A stretch of DNA of 64,000 nt from an uncultured Candidatus Micrarchaeota archaeon (GTDB lineage Archaea > Micrarchaeota > Micrarchaeia > Anstonellales > Bilamarchaeaceae), in assembly GCA_963714085.1 (NCBI GenBank), contig OY970229.1, positions 480,001 through 544,000 of the forward strand, given 5' to 3'. Of the stretch, positions 10,803-40,115 are shown one piece after another. The position numbers and the translations under genes were made by a program. The number at the start of each line of letters is the position of its first letter. Positions within the stretch are counted from its first letter, which is position 1. The notes beneath the pieces were generated by a model. The model worked only from the letters and a program-made list of their open reading frames with translations. It made no database searches and was not told where the DNA came from.

Positions 10803-11840
10803 TTGTATAGTTATATGTGTTCTCAATCGCGCGCGTGCCGCGCTGGCAGCAGGGAAAAAGTCAAGGTGGCGTTCATCGGAGCCGGGAATATCGCAGCGCA
10901 GCACATGCGAGCGCTTGTCGCATTCCCAGACGTCGCGGTGGAAGGGGTTTGCGACGTCAGTAAAAGCGTCCTTGAGCAAAGGCGTCTGGAGTTCGGCGTA
11001 GGTACGTATTCGTCCGTGGGCGCCATGCTCCGCTCGGTTTCTCCTGACGCCGTGTTCATCTGCCTTCCACCCTACGCCCACGGTGGTGCAGAGCGGGCCT
11101 GCATAAGCCGTGGCATCCCGTTCTTGGTTGAGAAACCACTGTCCAATGACCTGTTCCTTGCCAGGAAAATAGCAGCCGAGGTCCGCAGGACTGGACTGCT
11201 GACCTCCGTCGCCTACATGAACCGTTATAGGCGGAGTGTCCAGAGGGCCAAAGAACTGCTCGGCAAGCATCCCCCCGTTCTGATTGACGCTGGCTGGCGT
11301 ATAGGCACGCCGCTGGGCCACCCTTGGCTGACCCAAAAACGCCTCTCGGGAGGGCAGCTCCTCGAACAGACCACACACTTATTCGACCTCATCAGATACC
11401 TTTGTGGGGAAGCCGCCAGCGTCTATTGCTGCGGCGCTAGGGGCTTCGTTCCAAGGAGCCGCGCATACGATACGGATGATGCGACTGTCGTGAGCCTGTG
11501 CATGAGAAACGGTGCGGTAGCCTCGATACAGAGCTCCTGGTCAAGCGGATTATGCGACATGATACATATCAGGTTCCTCGGACCGGCGATAATGGTGGAA
11601 CTTACTGGCTGGAACCAGGATGCGAGGATAGTCACCAAAAGATCGAGTGTGGAGATAAGCGGCGAAGAGGATATTTTTGCCATCGAGGACAGGGCCTTCC
11701 TGCATGCAGTGAGGAGTGGCGACTCTTCCGGCGTACTCAGCGACTATGGCGAAGGCGTGAGGAGCCTGGAGCTGAGCATTGCAGCCAACATGAGTCTGGA
11801 AACCGGAAAGCCGATCAAACTTCGTGGAGACGGGAAATGA
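10803..11840 (+). CDS. Gfo/Idh/MocA family oxidoreductase
   Basis: KVAFIGAGNIA, LPPYAH, LVEKPL, SGGQLLEQTTHLFD; start may be ATG 10815. Confidence 0.92.
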   Translation: MYSYMCSQSRACRAGSREKVKVAFIGAGNIAAQHMRALVAFPDVAVEGVCDVSKSVLEQRRLEFGVGTYSSVGAMLRSVSPDAVFICLPPYAHGGAERACISRGIPFLVEKPLSNDLFLARKIAAEVRRTGLLTSVAYMNRYRRSVQRAKELLGKHPPVLIDAGWRIGTPLGHPWLTQKRLSGGQLLEQTTHLFDLIRYLCGEAASVYCCGARGFVPRSRAYDTDDATVVSLCMRNGAVASIQSSWSSGLCDMIHIRFLGPAIMVELTGWNQDARIVTKRSSVEISGEEDIFAIEDRAFLHAVRSGDSSGVLSDYGEGVRSLELSIAANMSLETGKPIKLRGDGK

Positions 11841-12315
11841 TCTCCTTTACCGCATCTTCCACCCGTCCGGAGATGTCGATGGTCGTGCCGTAATCTAACC
11901 TGGCAACCAGCCTGTAGACGTCTCTGACAGCCGTTTTTCCGTAAGGCGCGGCCCGCTTTCTGTCCCTTTCGATGCAGATCTCAAGCGGCGCATTCAGGCT
12001 GAATACGAAACCCCGGTAGGGGGACAAGCGGCCCATCAGGTCGTCTATGGCTTCCCTGTGGTAAAAGCAGGCGTCAAAAATCACAATCCGGTCGCCGTCA
12101 AGGTTTTTCCTTGCAGCCGGAGCCATCAGCCTGTCTGCTTTGATGAAGTTTTCAACAGGGATGCAGCCGATTTTCGTATCGATGACGTCCAATCCATTCT
12201 CGGCAAGGACGGCATCAACCGAAACATAAGCGGCTCCCATAGCTGCAGCTATTTTACTTGCAATGGTTGTCTTGCCGCAGCCCAGCGGCCCCCTTATGAT
12301 TACGAAATATGCCAT
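11815..12315 (-). CDS. P-loop small-molecule/nucleotide kinase (AAA_33/gluconate-kinase-like)
   Basis: IIRGPLGCGKTT, VIFDACF, APLEICIERDRKR. Confidence 0.85.
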   Translation of the reverse strand: MAYFVIIRGPLGCGKTTIASKIAAAMGAAYVSVDAVLAENGLDVIDTKIGCIPVENFIKADRLMAPAARKNLDGDRIVIFDACFYHREAIDDLMGRLSPYRGFVFSLNAPLEICIERDRKRAAPYGKTAVRDVYRLVARLDYGTTIDISGRVEDAVKEIISRLHEV

Positions 12316-29010: not shown

Positions 29011-32000
29011 TCATTTTATCTTGAATTTCGCACGCTCGTACATGTTCATGTATGCTCCCGGCGGATACTTATCTCCTCCGCTTGCGACTTCTCTCTCGAT
29101 GCTGTAGGAGGTCTGGCCAGGTTTGAGGTTTTTCGCCAACTCAGTGCCGTCGATGGGCACCCGGAACGCATCCCGCAGCCAGCGCACTTTGATAGCCAGG
29201 AAATCGAACTTTAAGTCGTTCATGCCGGTTTCTTGGTTCGGGATCGGCGTATAGGTATGTTCGAATACGAACCTCTTGACTCCTGTCCTCTCGAGTTCGG
29301 CATCCGATGTCTTGGAAGCTGCCCCATACCTGGCCCATCCGTCCTGGGCGTCGATCCATCCAACGAACGCACCCTTGTTGTAATCCCACTTCGCATAGAA
29401 GTACGCGGTTCTGCTGTCGTCGTCGCTGAGCCTCGCGACGCGCTTCACACCATGGGTCGACTCGTTATTAGACATCACGTAATAGCAATGCGGAGAAGAC
29501 GTCAGGTCCTCCTCAAACGCCGTGTAGGAAAACGTTTTGCCTTCGAAAAGCGGCGCCAGCGGAGTCTTCGCAGACCATGACAAGATGACGGATCTGCGTC
29601 CGGCATTTCCGGATTCAGGACCCATCTGGATAGAGTAGAACCTGGCGACTGGCGCGGGCGGCACCACCTTCTCCTCTTTCTTCGGCAGCCTGCTCCCCGC
29701 GTCCTGGAGGTCCTTGAGCGCGGTGGTCATCAGCTGGATGGCCCTCACCGGGTTGGCCCATGCGCCAGCGGCCGAGCAGTCGTAGAGGTTCTCCGATGCG
29801 TTGGATCGGTAAACCTCGGCGAGACCGGCAACGAGCTTGTATTTGGTGAACGCGCGGTTGTAGAGCAGCCCGGCCGCAGAACCCGATTTTTTCGATTCTT
29901 CTGCAAGCCTTGCGCTGATGCCTGACTGGTCCTGCCTTTTCTTAAGCGCGTCCCAGTCCGCCGCAAGCCTGGATAGGGGCTTGAGCAGGGCTGCATTGCC
30001 TGCGGCAACCTGCTCGGCATATTTCGCCCTGAGCGACTCCGGAGAAACACCCAGCTGTTTCACGTCGACCTTGCCGTATCCTTCTGCGGCTGCCTTCTTC
30101 GCATCGGAGAATCCGCTGAGGTCGAGTTCGGAGATTGAATATTTATCTTTCCTGAGGCTGGCCACGTATGGGGCCCAGGTCTCCTCGATGTACGGAAGCA
30201 TGCCTCTGGAGAGGTCGTCCATCGCCGCCGTATCCGCGGTCCTGCGGTAGCGCGGGTCGCGCCTTATCCCCTGCGGGACGGATTCGTCCAGCAGCTCGCG
30301 CGCCGCGGACAGGCCGGATTTGTCAGAAACCGCATCCGTCCATGGGAAGAATAGGTCCTTCTTCGCGCTCAGCGCTGATACCAGGACGCGCTCCGTCTTG
30401 TTCAGATCCCCATAGACGGCTTTCCTGTTGACCTCCTTCTGGTCGCTGGGCACGGTCGAGCTGACAGTACCCCAGTATGCGGAGTGGTGCCATCCGAAGA
30501 ACGAATTCTCCATGTTGATCAGGGAACGCGGATATATCGTCACCAGTGATTCCAGCGTGAGGTCCGGCATGGTGGCCGGGTGGGCCTCCGGGCAGTCCGG
30601 GTTGCCGAATGCGAACCTGAATAGCTCGAGCTCGTGCTCATAGGCAGCCTTCGCGTTCTTGAACTGGGCCGTGTCTTTCCCGGGCAGCTGCTTGAGCGCC
30701 TCGGCCTCTTCGTAAAGGGAGATCGCGTGCACGACACCAGCCTCGAGCTGCTCGGTCAGGCGGAACATCTCATCCGACGTGGTCGCCTTTTCCTGCGACG
30801 CCTTCTTGCAGCGCTCCACGAGCCTGTTCGCCACGTCGAGCAGCGGGCCGGCGTTCACGTGCTTGGCGGCATCCTCGGCGTAGCCTATGAACTCGTCGAA
30901 ATCCTTCTTTGCCATCACCGGGGAATCTTTTGTGAGGTTCTGGCTGGTGCTGGAGTAGTACTCCCACCTCGCCTTCATGAGGAATATCGCCACCCTCGGG
31001 GCTATCATGAGGTCCGCGGCATCGTCCTGATGGAGTATCCTTTCGAGCTGCAGCATGGCGTTCTTGCGCGGGTCCTCGGGCTTCATCTTGCGCGGGTCGT
31101 CCTTCATCGTGGAGAGCAGGAGCGCCAGGTTGTAGTTCAGCGCGTCCACCACCGCGTCGCAGGTCTTCTTGTTTCCGCCATTGCGCCGGTATTCATCGGC
31201 CACTTCCCTCGCATCTGTCAGGGCCTGGAGCGCGCTAGCGAGGTCCTCGAGCCTTATCACGGTCATGCCCGGCACGGTCGTACCTTGGGTCTTGGCGTCC
31301 TGGGCCTGTTTCACAAGGTGCTGCAACGCCGTCACGGTGTCTTTCTTCAGATCGTATTTCACTTTCACCGGCTTGCCGCGGGGGTTCGTGGACTTTAGCG
31401 TATAGGACCCTTTGAAGGCAGACGCATTGATGAGCGCTACGTACTTTTCACCTATGACCTGGGCAAGATCCCGCTGGCGTTCATTGATATCCCCCTGGTA
31501 AGGGACGTACCAGGCCTCGCCCGCGGCCGCGGTTTTGGGTGCTTCGGCTTCCGCTTTCTTGGGCACTGCTCTCACTACTGCCGCGGCCCTGGCGGCTTCT
31601 ATCTCGCCTGGAGCTGCCTGGGCCTTTTCCTGCGCCTGCCTTATCATGGCCTCCCCTTTACCGGTCGGGGCTGCTGGTTTGGAAGCGGCTTCGGAGTCTT
31701 TCTGTATCGCAGCGAGCTTGAGCACGATGTTGGTGGTGACTTCCGTCCTTGGCGAATCGCCGAAAAGCTTATCCCTGGAGATATCATCGGTGGTTCCGAA
31801 CACGCTGTTATAGCGCGCTTTCGGGGTTCTGCCTTCTGCGATACCAAGCTGTGCCATGGTGTCCAGGAATTCCTGCACGCGTTTCATGCTCGGGTTTATC
31901 TTGAAATCTTTATCTTCAAAGGAAGGGAAAGCGACCTTATTCTTAGGGTCGAAAAGCAGCTTTCTTATTCCGTCCCATTGTTCATTCGCCGTTCTTACGA

Positions 32001-32265
32001 GTGCGAGTTTCGCTACCGCCAAGTCTGTTTCGCTAACCTGTTTCTTTTGAGCAAATGCCGCGGCCACAGATAACACCCCATCCGTATTGTTTTCATTACC
32101 CCGATAACGCTTATAAAGGTGCTCAACGGAGGGGAGCAGAGTGGACCAAAGTGTCACGGCTGCGGTCAGACCCGCAAGGGCGGGCCTGCGCCTGCTCTTG
32201 TGCCGGAATTGACTGCCGTAACTGATACTCCCTGCCTCTCCCATCATTACACCACTATATCCCAT
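29011..32265 (-). CDS. Large hypothetical protein (1084 aa), N-terminal basic + hydrophobic segment
   Basis: RHKSRRRPALAGLTAAVTLWSTLL then a mostly helical body. Confidence 0.75.
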   Translation of the reverse strand: MGYSGVMMGEAGSISYGSQFRHKSRRRPALAGLTAAVTLWSTLLPSVEHLYKRYRGNENNTDGVLSVAAAFAQKKQVSETDLAVAKLALVRTANEQWDGIRKLLFDPKNKVAFPSFEDKDFKINPSMKRVQEFLDTMAQLGIAEGRTPKARYNSVFGTTDDISRDKLFGDSPRTEVTTNIVLKLAAIQKDSEAASKPAAPTGKGEAMIRQAQEKAQAAPGEIEAARAAAVVRAVPKKAEAEAPKTAAAGEAWYVPYQGDINERQRDLAQVIGEKYVALINASAFKGSYTLKSTNPRGKPVKVKYDLKKDTVTALQHLVKQAQDAKTQGTTVPGMTVIRLEDLASALQALTDAREVADEYRRNGGNKKTCDAVVDALNYNLALLLSTMKDDPRKMKPEDPRKNAMLQLERILHQDDAADLMIAPRVAIFLMKARWEYYSSTSQNLTKDSPVMAKKDFDEFIGYAEDAAKHVNAGPLLDVANRLVERCKKASQEKATTSDEMFRLTEQLEAGVVHAISLYEEAEALKQLPGKDTAQFKNAKAAYEHELELFRFAFGNPDCPEAHPATMPDLTLESLVTIYPRSLINMENSFFGWHHSAYWGTVSSTVPSDQKEVNRKAVYGDLNKTERVLVSALSAKKDLFFPWTDAVSDKSGLSAARELLDESVPQGIRRDPRYRRTADTAAMDDLSRGMLPYIEETWAPYVASLRKDKYSISELDLSGFSDAKKAAAEGYGKVDVKQLGVSPESLRAKYAEQVAAGNAALLKPLSRLAADWDALKKRQDQSGISARLAEESKKSGSAAGLLYNRAFTKYKLVAGLAEVYRSNASENLYDCSAAGAWANPVRAIQLMTTALKDLQDAGSRLPKKEEKVVPPAPVARFYSIQMGPESGNAGRRSVILSWSAKTPLAPLFEGKTFSYTAFEEDLTSSPHCYYVMSNNESTHGVKRVARLSDDDSRTAYFYAKWDYNKGAFVGWIDAQDGWARYGAASKTSDAELERTGVKRFVFEHTYTPIPNQETGMNDLKFDFLAIKVRWLRDAFRVPIDGTELAKNLKPGQTSYSIEREVASGGDKYPPGAYMNMYERAKFKIK

Positions 32266-36780: not shown

Positions 36781-37824
36781 ATGCTCGACAGGAAGAAATC
36801 GGGGGACATACTCTCTAGTTATAAAGGCAAATTCACCATCGCCACGATATGCTCGCACTCCGCGCTGCAGATATTCAGCGGGGCGCGCCGCGAGGGCGTG
36901 AAGACCATAGGCATCTGCAAGAGGGAGAACCGCAAGCTGTACGAATCGTTCCCTCTCGCCAAGCCGGACGAGTTCTTGATAGTGGACGATTACAAGGACA
37001 TCCCGGTGCCCGAGCTCGTGGCGCGGAACGCGATCGTGGTGCCGCACGGCTCGTTCGTCGAGTACGTGGGCGAGAAGTACGACGACCTGGAGGTCCCGAT
37101 ATACGGCAACCGGGCGTCCATATCCTGGGAGCGCTCCCGCGACAAGATGTTCGAATGGATGAGGAAGGCGGGCATAAGGACGCCCAAGATAATGAAGCCT
37201 GAAGAGATAGCCGGGCCCGCGCTGGTGAAGTTCCCCGGGGCCAAGGGCGGCCGCGGCTACACCATAGTGAGCTCCTACGATGAGTTCCGCAGGCGGGTGG
37301 GCGAAAGGAAATGCATGGTGCAGGAGTTCCTGATAGGCGTAAGGGCATACCCTCATTTCTTCTTCTCGCCGATCTCGCAGATCGGCTACCCGACGGCCCA
37401 TGGCAGGCTTGAGCTGCTTGGCGTGGACAAACGGGTCGAATCGAGTGCAGACGAGATAGCCAGGGCGGTTTCCGCAGGGCTCACGCCCAGGCTGAGCTTC
37501 ACTGTGATAGGCAACGAGCCCATGGTTCTGCGGGAATCGCTGCTCACCGATTACATGGAGATAGGCAGGAGGGTATCCGACATATCGCACCTGCTCTTCG
37601 GCGGCATGATAGGGCCGTTCTGCATAGAGACCATAATCACCGAGGACCTGGAGATATACGCCTTCGAACTCAGCGCGCGCATAGTCGCTGGCACGAACAT
37701 GTACCCCCAGGGATCCCCCTATTCCTCCTTTTACTACAAGGAGCCGATGTCCACAGGCAGGCGCATAGCGCGCGAGCTCAAGGACGCGGTGAAGAAAAAG
37801 AGATTAAAGGAGATAGTGTACTGA
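36781..37824 (+). CDS. purP: PurP-family formate--AICAR ligase (ATP-grasp)
   Basis: ATICSHSALQIFSGARREG, VPHGSFVEY, GAKGGRGY, GNEPMVLRESLL, FELSARIVAGTN, MSTGRRIARE. Confidence 0.93.
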   Translation: MLDRKKSGDILSSYKGKFTIATICSHSALQIFSGARREGVKTIGICKRENRKLYESFPLAKPDEFLIVDDYKDIPVPELVARNAIVVPHGSFVEYVGEKYDDLEVPIYGNRASISWERSRDKMFEWMRKAGIRTPKIMKPEEIAGPALVKFPGAKGGRGYTIVSSYDEFRRRVGERKCMVQEFLIGVRAYPHFFFSPISQIGYPTAHGRLELLGVDKRVESSADEIARAVSAGLTPRLSFTVIGNEPMVLRESLLTDYMEIGRRVSDISHLLFGGMIGPFCIETIITEDLEIYAFELSARIVAGTNMYPQGSPYSSFYYKEPMSTGRRIARELKDAVKKKRLKEIVY

Positions 37825-37833
37825 TTATAGCGG

Positions 37834-38576
37834 GTGTTCGACATCTCCGAAAACATCGTACCTAAGCACATCGCCATCATCCCGGACGGAAAGAAGGCCT
37901 TTCGGTTTTTTTAAGAAAGGCTGGAACCGCAAACCGGAGATGGGCGCAGAAGAGGGGCATAAGCAAGAGAGAGGGCTACGCCACGGGAATCCAGAAAATA
38001 GGCGACGTCCTCAAATGGTGCAAGGAGATGGACGTCCGCATGCTCACCATGTGGGGTTTCTCCACCGACAACTTCAAACGCGACAAAGACGAGGTGGACG
38101 AGCTCTTCGGGCTCTTCAAGGAGAACCTGAAGAAGGCGCTGGATTCCGACGAGAAGAACAGATACGAGGTGCGCGTGCGGTTCCTGGGCAGGATAAACCT
38201 GTTCCCGAACGAGATCCAGGAGATGATAAGGAAGGCGGAGGAGATAAGCGCCAAGAACTCCGCCTACCAGCTGAACCTCCTGCTATCCTACGGCGGCAGG
38301 GAGGAGCTGGTGGACGCAGTGAACTCGATGCTCAAGGAGGGGCTCAAAGAGGTGGACGAGAAGGCGATATCGGACCATCTCTACACCGCGGGACTGCCTG
38401 ACCCGGACATCGTGATACGGACATCCGGCGAGCAGAGGCTCTCGGGCCTCATGCCCTGGCAGTGCACGTATTCGGAGTTCTACTTCTGCGACAAATTATG
38501 GCCGGATTTCTCGAAAGATGATTTCATCGACGCGCTCGACACGTTCGCGAAGAGGAAAAGGAGATTCGGGAAATAG
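37834..38576 (+). CDS. uppS: Cis-prenyltransferase (UppS), split by a 41-nt intron; exons 37834-37891 and 37933-38576
   Basis: PKHIAIIPDG|NRRWAQ restored on removing the insert (702 nt = 233 aa + stop); FSTDNFKR, SYGGREE, DPDIVIRTSGEQRLSG, LWPDF, RRFGK. Confidence 0.88.
37892..37932 (+). other. Putative archaeal bulge-helix-bulge/loop intron in mRNA
   Basis: Exon helix CCGG/CCGG, two AAA bulges flanking the ACGG/CCGC central helix, internal hairpin GCCTTTC..GAAAGGC; carries an in-frame TAA and a frameshift. Confidence 0.75.
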
Positions 38577-38585
38577 CATGCGGAT

Positions 38586-38996
38586 TTATAAGTAGGCTCT
38601 TGCCGGAATCCTCGCCTGCGGCGAGTCCCAGTGGCGCAATCTTGTCTTCAGGGAGCTCTTGTATGAGAACGCTCTGTGAACGATATAAGCCCGCTTCTCC
38701 GAACAATGCGTTATGTGCTTTTGAGAAAGTTGGCACAGGACCAAGCCGACATCCCTACGTACTGCTTTAGAAAGATTGTTCTCGCTCCTGGATGCATCCG
38801 CTTCCAGTATAGCCTCAAGCTTCTGCGCCGTCTCCGGACCGCCGTTTGCCCGCAGCCACAGCGCAGCGCGTGCCCTCGCCACGGGGACATCTGAAAGAAG
38901 GCTTCTTATCCGCCGCTGCTCCATGGAAGTACCAGCCCTATCGACCGCGAGTGGTGGTTCGAGAATTGGTCGTTCACAAATGGCCGACGTTGGCAT
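38586..38996 (-). CDS. Hypothetical protein (HEAT-like helical pair)
   Basis: LLSDVPVARARAALWL...VRRDVGLVL. Confidence 0.55.
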   Translation of the reverse strand: MPTSAICERPILEPPLAVDRAGTSMEQRRIRSLLSDVPVARARAALWLRANGGPETAQKLEAILEADASRSENNLSKAVRRDVGLVLCQLSQKHITHCSEKRAYIVHRAFSYKSSLKTRLRHWDSPQARIPARAYL

Positions 38997-39077
38997 GGGC
39001 GCACCTGTGTTAGAATCGACGTGCAGATTTATAATTGTTGCGTTTTTTCACGATTTCCCACCTTGAAAGGGGAAATA

Positions 39078-39166
39078 TGCCGCAGGCCAGATTTGAACTA
39101 GCGACCCCACCGTGTCCGAAATGGTTTTCCTTCAGCGGTGTGCTCTCCCAGCTGAGCTACTGCGGC
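39078..39166 (-). tRNA. tRNA-Phe(GAA) with 16-nt intron at 37/38 (39114-39129)
   Basis: GCCGCAG..CACCG-CT-GAA-G[GAAAACCATTTCGGAC]A-CGGTG..GTTCAAATC..CTGCGGCA; mature length 73. Confidence 0.93.
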
Positions 39167-39252
39167 GTCAGCACGGGAGTTAAAGTGGATAAGGATTTTA
39201 AACGAGTTGGTGGGTGATTGCTTGCCTGCGGGCAAGGCTCACCTTTTTGGTG

Positions 39253-39473
39253 GGTGAGGGGCATAGTCTGCCTTCTGTGGCCCGGAAACCGGGGCGGCAT
39301 TGTACTGAGCGTAGGAAAACCTACTTGCTCCGTCATCAGGAGGGAAGCGCTCGTTTCATCCCTTGCGGGTATCGTTTCTGTACCGCTTCCAAGGCCCTTG
39401 AAGCCTTCGCTCCCTCGCGGAGGGCAGAACTTCCTCACTTCCTCGCGGAAGCGTGAGCCGCCTGCCCCTCACC
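39253..39473 (-). ncRNA. rnpB: RNase P RNA (compact, ~221 nt)
   Basis: P1 GGTGAGGGGCA/TGCCCCTCACC; GAGGAAGTTCTGCC (CR I) pairs with ACAGAAGGCAGACTA (CR V); ACAGAAA and TGAAAC flank a CCC-GCAA-GGG hairpin. Confidence 0.9.
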
Positions 39474-39527
39474 TGCGTATACTAGGCACAGGCAGCAATA
39501 AAATCATTCCGTTTCCCAATCCCACCC

Positions 39528-40115
39528 ATGAGGTACGAGCTGGTCATATTCGATTTCAACGATACCATCGGGCACCTCACCGTGCGCTGGTCCGACGTCA
39601 AGAGAGAGCTGGTGGAGTGGGCGAAAGCCAACGACGGGAAGATAGACCCTGCGGACCATATAATCGTCATCGCGAACGAGCTGTCCATGCGGCCTGACGG
39701 CAAGAAGAAGGTCGTGGAGCTGTTCGACAGGTACGAAAGCGAGTGCGTGGGGAAGAAAACGTATCTCCTCTTCCCGAGCATGGTCGGGCTGATGAAAGAC
39801 CTGAAGAAAGCCGGATACCGGCTTGCGATAGCGACCGGGAACGAGGTCGGGACCGTATCAAGCATACTCGAAATAGGAGGCCTGGACGGCCTGGTCGAGT
39901 GTATATCGGGCATCGACACGGTCAGGATAAGCAAGCCCGACCCTGAAACCCTTGACAATATCGTCACGAAGCTCGGCGTCGACAAGAAACGGGCTCTTTT
40001 CATAGGCAACAGCGATTTCGACGTGCTGTGCGGGAAGAACGCGGGGATAGAGACGATAAAAATCAGGACGCTCTGGGAGGACGACGTGTCGATGCTGAGG
40101 GAGATGCTGCTCTGA
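39528..40115 (+). CDS. HAD family hydrolase (phosphoglycolate phosphatase-like)
   Basis: IFDFNDTI, IATGN, SKPDP, FIGNSDFDVLCGKNAG. Confidence 0.85.
   Translation: MRYELVIFDFNDTIGHLTVRWSDVKRELVEWAKANDGKIDPADHIIVIANELSMRPDGKKKVVELFDRYESECVGKKTYLLFPSMVGLMKDLKKAGYRLAIATGNEVGTVSSILEIGGLDGLVECISGIDTVRISKPDPETLDNIVTKLGVDKKRALFIGNSDFDVLCGKNAGIETIKIRTLWEDDVSMLREMLL

Follow-up and report, generated by a model that had tools for sequence, protein, structure and literature searches.

The uppS gene of this Micrarchaeota genome, a single contig of 1.57 Mb, is split by a 41-nt insert (37892-37932) between DG and NRRW of the DGNRRW sequence, presumably the phosphate-binding motif of the enzyme, which raises the question of whether, and by which route, a functional protein can be made from it. 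All positions refer to the window, the whole stretch of 64,000 nucleotides that was analyzed. Exon 1 is read from a GTG at 37834 in a frame that leads into HIAIIPDG and meets a TAA inside the insert (37912-37914), and exon 2 lies in a different frame, which runs to a TAG at 38574-38576. The claim of an earlier note on this DNA, that 41 extra nucleotides break the motif and bring in a stop and a frameshift, holds on the sequence. DGNRRW and a 233-aa protein are regenerated when 41 nt are deleted in any one of four neighbouring registers (starts 37890-37893). In each bulge triplet the archaeal splicing endonuclease cleaves between the second and third bases, and the intron is placed at 37892-37932 because this rule selects among the four registers; removal of this segment gives the full 233-aa enzyme that the note had predicted from the rule. 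The product is assigned to the cis-prenyltransferases by its match to PF01255/TIGR00055 and its conserved motifs. It is the single PF01255 match genome-wide (one contig, 87.65% complete), so that the search for a second intact uppS, which the note had advised, returned this gene only, and a missing paralogue is, at this completeness, strictly conceivable. The features of the locus are these:

37825-37833, forward strand: 9-nt spacer separating uppS from a purP-like gene (last base of the stop codon, 37824); occupied by a LAGLIDADG gene in some relatives and empty here.
37834-37891, forward strand: uppS exon 1 with a putative GTG start; its 19 codons lead up to HIAIIPDG, and one further nucleotide supplies position 1 of the Asn codon.
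37878-37885, forward strand: exon-exon helix, 5' strand, with the inner four bases at 37882-37885, from fold and covariation.
37886-37889, forward strand: central 4-bp helix H, 5' strand (exon 1, ACGG).
37890-37892, forward strand: 5' bulge or loop triplet AAA, predicted cut at 37891/37892, from the cut rule and the register test.
37892-37932, forward strand: predicted BHB/BHL-type intron of 41 nt, 44% GC versus 56% for the coding sequence, kept in independent assemblies.
37896-37922, forward strand: intron-internal hairpin of 8 bp, whose loop carries a run of seven T and the in-frame TAA at 37912-37914.
37927-37930, forward strand: helix H, 3' strand (intron, CCGC), 3 of 4 pairs with one A.C mismatch.
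37931-37933, forward strand: 3' bulge triplet AAA, predicted cut at 37932/37933.
37933-38576, forward strand: uppS exon 2 (cis-prenyltransferase, PF01255/TIGR00055), ending in TAG.
37934-37942, forward strand: exon-exon helix, 3' strand, from fold and covariation.

The insert could be suspected of being an assembly or sequencing artefact since no contig of run X1, the best match overall, lies over it (there is no cover at 37828-37948, which is uninformative either way). However, the earlier note had proposed that the insert be sought in independent DNA, and it is present in contigs of two other runs, X2 and X3, from different studies; the contig of X2 covers the whole stretch (83 differences in ~1190 nt), and among the differences listed for the two contigs those inside the insert are at 37905-37906, in the hairpin loop. 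Moreover, a genus-mate (G001; this genome is G000) carries a homologous insert, likewise of 41 nt, at this position, and same-site inserts occur in 34 other loci, which leaves an artefact with a negligible probability.

A second explanation is that the gene is dead, or expressed as an N-truncated form from an internal ATG at 38028, with the insert as the remnant of a small mobile element. In the databases this uppS is indeed entered as a truncated 182-aa form, some insert interiors look like hairpin repeats, and DPANN archaea can take up host lipids. The note had anticipated that annotation would truncate the gene, and, in addition to this entry, the protein cluster to which it belongs contains truncated or nonsense N-termini (the genus-mate's being a nonsense one), except for P0004, an uninterrupted 232-aa protein of an intron-less relative. 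An ungapped alignment of the predicted spliced protein with P0004 shows identity at 206/232 positions, and exon 1 matches its N-terminus at 16 of 18 residues. Against a dead or truncated gene, uppS is single copy, and exon 2 has a dN/dS of 0.12 for the pair formed by this genome and its genus-mate; five further pairs of insert carriers give 0.04-0.19, and another pair was saturated. The 18 codons of exon 1 compared with the genus-mate show two synonymous and no non-synonymous changes. The exon-1 motif residues H, second Ile, P, D and G, as well as RRW, are invariant in 30/30 insert-bearing loci of the family, and a truncated form would be devoid of the catalytic Asp and of the RRW motif. As judged from these substitution patterns uppS is under purifying selection, and loss or truncation of the gene is a very improbable reading.

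The distribution of the insert was analyzed with a family census anchored on the protein (a search with exon 2) and not on the RNA motif, in which 93/99 genomes matched and 93 loci were read. An insert is present at the identical site in 30 of these (15-114 nt, with unrelated interiors) and absent from 63. In a first sample uppS had been found in 58 of 61 genomes, and 12 matches that started at profile position 5, like this uppS, turned out to be insert carriers. A DNA pattern search identified 15/301 genomes of the class, two of them outside the order, and the reversed control pattern gave no match among the matches listed for the same 301 genomes. Among all species genomes the pattern was found in 23 stretches, 20 labelled Micrarchaeota, one Aenigmatarchaeota and two bacterial; the predominance of Micrarchaeota and the endonuclease match described below both point to the assignment of this genome to that phylum. 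The bacterial ones (L088 and L097) were rejected as chance matches, with no uppS frame following, and those in G015 and G037 were dropped as false upstream anchors. Two further groups of the class, as well as Aenigmatarchaeota, also contain same-site inserts, and the full census comprises 35 insert-bearing and 85 insert-free loci, with two more carriers added afterwards. Overall the inserts are 13-114 nt long and unrelated in their interiors; in the genus-mate the intron hairpin is partly decayed (6/41 positions differ). The longest (63-114 nt; L159, L164, L034, L036 and L171) have hairpin-rich interiors, with repeated short units in four of them, possibly small repeats dropped into the tip of the intron.

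Translation is broken by all 35 inserts, 21 through a frameshift and 14, in frame, each through a stop. A group I or group II intron was rejected on these lengths, 13-114 nt versus a ribozyme core of hundreds of nucleotides, and an Rfam search over 37500-39600 matched no intron family. A full-length protein could also be produced without splicing, by polymerase slippage at the run of seven T, by ribosomal frameshifting or by a gene-60-like hop: one base added to the run opens the frame through exon 2, and a matched take-off/landing codon is found in 16/35 inserts (4 Gly, 12 Asn). Nevertheless, the product of slippage gains 14 residues inside the DGNRRW motif, a run of seven or more is present in just one of the 35 inserts and is shortened in two related assemblies, there are no matched codons for a hop in this genome, and all 14 in-frame inserts contain stops. 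Neither mechanism predicts the two covarying helices or the cut register described below, and recoding is accordingly hardly credible.

The RNA of the insert region folds with a minimum free energy of -29.7 kcal/mol (z -2.99; equally stable shuffles, 1/200), and the MFE and centroid structures agree. The fold contains the exon-exon helix expected of a BHB/BHL intron, the central helix ACGG/CCGC with 3 of 4 pairs and one A.C mismatch, and the intron hairpin at 37896-37922. As folded, the outer helix pairs CAUCCCGG/CCGG.A.GAUG plus four more pairs. The 5' side of the motif opens into a 6x4 internal loop rather than a clean bulge of 3 nt, and the 3' bulge is widened to 1x4 by the A.C mismatch. 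The fold proposed in the earlier note stands as regards the three helices, including the single mismatch, and is refined at the two bulges and in the register of the outer helix, which differs slightly. A strict canonical BHB (hBHBh', with two clean 3-nt bulges and an intron helix at the 5' bulge) is not formed here, and the intron is classed as relaxed, or BHL, because its 5' side is a 6x4 loop and its first inner pair is G.A in this genome (a first inner pair is possible in 24/35 inserts).

The inner four pairs of the outer helix are all Watson-Crick in 30/30 insert-bearing family loci versus 6/63 insert-free ones; in 11 tree-independent pairs, ~9 point in the same direction and none against (median p 0.004). 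Across the 35 loci the second outer pair is G-C in 18 and U-A in 17, every one at synonymous codon positions, with Pro CCG paired to Arg CGG in the former and Pro CCT to Arg AGG in the latter, and non-carriers use all codons; the outer-helix pairing is, by this pattern, built by synonymous codon choice. In the central helix 107/120 cells are paired in the family, versus 7-38 when the partner is slid by 1-3 positions; 14/35 inserts have three central pairs and one has two. Its second pair is C-G in 22 inserts, U-A in 12 and broken in one, and all four combinations of the second central and second outer pairs are seen. Homing with co-conversion might transfer already paired flanks from one lineage to another and so inflate the covariation counts, although the pair types change 7 and 12 times on the tree. 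Both triplets are rich in A, and that on the 3' side is AAA in 33/35. A cut one base past the Gly codon is the sole register that gives PDGNRR in 35/35 loci, the neighboring registers giving it in 34, 34 and 21; its lead over the two upstream ones comes from a single locus, G022, to which L187, needing the same register, was added.

The genome encodes a 392-aa splicing endonuclease whose best match is PDB 4fz2 (E 1e-134), which we take to be the ARMAN-2 epsilon2 endonuclease, and in this alignment Y160 and K161 of the loop and the catalytic Y236, H251 and K282 are all conserved. The chain numbering of 4fz2 is consistent with that of the ARMAN-2 epsilon2 enzyme in the available part of PMC12397907, where this enzyme is described as cleaving BHB and BHL substrates alike. 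The ligase RtcB is also encoded, so the host appears equipped with an epsilon2 EndA suited to relaxed motifs and with a ligase; the statement of the note that some DPANN endonucleases accept relaxed motifs finds its counterpart in the broad-specificity residues of this EndA. Two further observations were made on this machinery: a second, weak EndA-like ORF of 166 aa, below the TIGR00324 cut-off, is present at G000:C1 ~656700-657200 (forward strand; L003), and the profile match of RtcB (G000:C1 1304382-1306085, reverse strand) is interrupted by an in-frame stretch of ~130 residues resembling a mini-intein.

Taken together, the insert is very probably a tRNA-type (BHB/BHL) intron spliced from the uppS mRNA, as the note had proposed, the relatives with same-site inserts and the covarying helices being decisive at the level of sequence. 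Every feature of a relaxed endonuclease-spliced intron that a sequence can reveal is present, and the insert would work like the intron of cbf5. The codons flanking the site would pair with each other in the transcript to give the outer helix, and the last bases of exon 1 with the 3' end of the intron to give the central helix; the epsilon2 endonuclease would then cleave both triplets, each behind its second base, and ligation of the exons by RtcB would follow, rebuilding the Asn codon and yielding the 233-aa cis-prenyltransferase. Splicing would be obligatory for a functional UppS, because the intron breaks the reading frame.

Other introns of this kind were sought genome-wide, as the note had suggested. 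A fold-based filter kept 9/2454 candidates and ranked uppS first by its A-rich bulges; three of the eight others were inspected and looked like ordinary gene junctions or non-genes. Helix-only filters were unspecific: uppS failed the outer-helix filter in one and was 58th of 415 in another. A homology scan with ORFs of related loci, which covered 77 kb of the 1.57 Mb (5%) and has low power, detected no second mRNA intron and returned, besides uppS, the normal rpoB split, in-frame insertions and shadow-frame noise; matches to rnhB, cbf5, gatB/gatE and pcm are continuous and stop-free in this genome. Within its limited power, the search yielded no second clear mRNA intron.

ARAGORN reports introns in 17 of 43 tRNA genes, with several probably mis-called. 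A tRNA-Phe(GAA) gene, overlooked by the tRNA tool unless its intron mode is used, lies at 39078-39166 (reverse strand), 0.5 kb past uppS; its intron, of 16 nt, occupies the customary position in the anticodon loop. The ~500 nt that separate it from uppS (38577-39077) hold a 136-aa antisense ORF, partly kept in the genus-mate (72% nucleotide identity over 292 nt). In the latter (L081 ~11400-12100, reverse strand) a LAGLIDADG-like ORF is directly upstream of a tRNA-Phe gene that aligns with that of this genome and has a longer intron; the ORF is absent here, as seen by comparison with 39166-39253. The tRNA-Phe intron would thus be the second BHB intron within 1.5 kb whose nuclease neighbour was lost. 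Elsewhere, at G000:C1 1195188-1195573 (forward strand), a LAGLIDADG ORF with an open frame of 257 aa extends as far as an intron-bearing tRNA gene, whose type as given by ARAGORN is probably wrong. Between a HAD hydrolase gene and tRNA-Phe there is an archaeal RNase P RNA (RF00373, 101.9 bits; 39253-39473, reverse strand), and an alanine/lysine-rich ORF of 1084 aa is located at 29011-32265 (reverse strand).

A link that the earlier note, otherwise supported in its intron reading, had missed is that in some relatives a LAGLIDADG gene (PF14528) adjoins or overlaps the start of uppS. This arrangement was found in three genomes (G002, G010 and G198) and in the Aenigmatarchaeota locus L095; these four intact genes are 43-57% identical, and in G339 the same slot holds an internally deleted copy. 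In G002 (L022/L091) the nuclease ORF continues in the frame of uppS exon 1 and terminates within the intron, and splicing could yield a nuclease-UppS fusion unless an internal ATG is used; in the tree the uppS of G002 does not cluster with those of its genus-mates, a placement that is weakly supported. A search from the endonuclease side, with a query built from the four genes first found beside introns, gave 4/99 genomes of the family, 3/401 of the class (already among those four), four close orthologues in 10 metagenome loci and 9/351 genomes of the other phylum, two of them close. Ten close orthologues are therefore known, and all nine with downstream DNA adjoin an intron-bearing uppS; in L117 the endonuclease is present without downstream DNA, and it was left uncounted. 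No such neighbour was found in the 63 intron-less loci having at least 900 nt upstream. It is also lacking in 28/35 intron-bearing loci, this genome included (5/35 have less than 900 nt upstream), and on independent pairs, of which there are three, the association of the nuclease with the intron is not significant. No homologue of the uppS-linked nuclease gene was found in this genome, whose eight PF14528 matches are located elsewhere.

These data suggest that the intron has probably spread by collaborative homing and is orphaned in this genome. A free-standing LAGLIDADG endonuclease encoded upstream of uppS would target alleles that lack the intron and cleave them in or close to the conserved DGNRRW codons, and the intron would render the donor allele immune; here the endonuclease gene would be gone, and the intron would persist as an orphan that still requires splicing. 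Alternatively, a spliced intron could be old, vertically inherited and repeatedly lost, the LAGLIDADG neighbour being incidental or having another target. To account for intron presence the tree needs 25 changes, of which strong branches force 12 or more, versus ~30 with shuffled labels, in a quick tree of 119/120 rows (one short row was left out) and with a count that cannot separate gain from loss. The slight clustering of presence (4-9/500 shuffles as low) speaks for vertical inheritance, as do the non-significant association on independent pairs, the perfect outer helix of 6/63 intron-less family loci, as a recent precise loss would leave, and the lineage-specific loss of cbf5 introns mentioned in the accessible part of PMC2738675. 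On the other hand, it fits poorly with a single endonuclease family (43-57% identity) that occupies the same slot in two phyla and lies beside the intron wherever this is visible, and with the internally deleted copy in G339, which is what a homing cycle predicts. Distant paralogues of the uppS-linked nuclease, furthermore, directly precede intron-bearing tRNA genes in 5/8 loci. For these reasons purely vertical descent is a possible but rather unlikely history. The five paralogues in question (L189, L191, L192, L193 and L195) lie just before intron-bearing tRNA-Thr or tRNA-Gly-like genes, and those of L188 and L190 precede an AAA+ ATPase gene that resembles the RFC large subunit.

Collaborative homing at uppS may well be one instance of a wider class of DPANN mobile two-part elements, composed of a free-standing LAGLIDADG endonuclease and an ORF-less micro-intron removed by the tRNA-splicing machinery of the host, which would invade the most conserved codons of essential protein and tRNA genes and leave orphans when the nuclease decays. 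If this is true, such elements would explain the gain of BHB introns, and EndA-mediated splicing of mRNA would recur, unnoticed, in these genomes, about a third of the family needing it for uppS. The uppS introns offer a concrete and testable mechanism for intron gain and loss, and their 37 natural variants make the rules for mRNA substrates of the endonuclease testable, from the minimum length of 13 nt to the mismatches that are tolerated and the helices formed by codons. In these genomes automated gene calling cuts a core lipid gene short or gives it a wrong start, which can distort claims on what DPANN archaea cannot make.

A BHB intron in crenarchaeal cbf5 pre-mRNA was reportedly described by Watanabe in 2002 and by Yoshinari in 2006. 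The uppS gene would be a second host for a BHB intron in a coding region, in phyla other than those of cbf5. In the literature searched, whose coverage leaves out most subscription journals, no report was found of a uppS intron or of Micrarchaeota mRNA introns, nor of a BHB intron that has a free-standing endonuclease as its partner. According to the accessible part of PMC7714728, cbf5 is the only other mRNA with a BHB intron beside the 5' UTR case of HVO_1309; the available part of PMC2738675 (Yokobori 2009) gives 16-44 nt for the cbf5 introns, located at a catalytic codon, and mentions predicted, unconfirmed introns in other protein genes. The two systems have much in common: in both, a short insert without an ORF interrupts the coding sequence in a catalytic motif, has boundaries of the endonuclease type, is scattered unevenly over the relatives and leads gene callers to wrong annotations. 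They differ in that the host gene encodes a lipid-carrier synthase and not an RNA-modifying enzyme, that the phyla are Micrarchaeota and Aenigmatarchaeota instead of Crenarchaeota, with an epsilon2 enzyme, that lengths are wider (13-114 nt) and gains or losses far more numerous, and that some uppS lineages have an adjacent free-standing LAGLIDADG gene; splicing is demonstrated for cbf5 and predicted from sequence for uppS.

HVO_1309 of Haloferax volcanii, as described in the part of Schwarz 2020 (PMC7714728) at hand, is likewise an mRNA substrate of the archaeal splicing endonuclease, although its intron is in the untranslated 5' UTR, whereas that of uppS breaks the reading frame. The BHL tRNA introns of ARMAN-2, going by the accessible text of PMC12397907, share with this system the epsilon2 type with the same five key residues, the relaxed motif and the lineage, but the uppS substrate would be an mRNA, whose exon-exon helix comes from synonymous codon choices. 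Finally, F-CphI and the cyanophage psbA intron, in the available portion of PMC6083498, also combine an ORF-less intron at a conserved site with a neighbouring free-standing endonuclease gene, as nine related uppS loci do, and by analogy with F-CphI the uppS neighbour could protect the donor and ride along; in contrast to that group I intron, the one in uppS would be a protein-spliced micro-intron and not a ribozyme, associated with a LAGLIDADG family on a cellular chromosome, with the endonuclease gene already lost in this genome.
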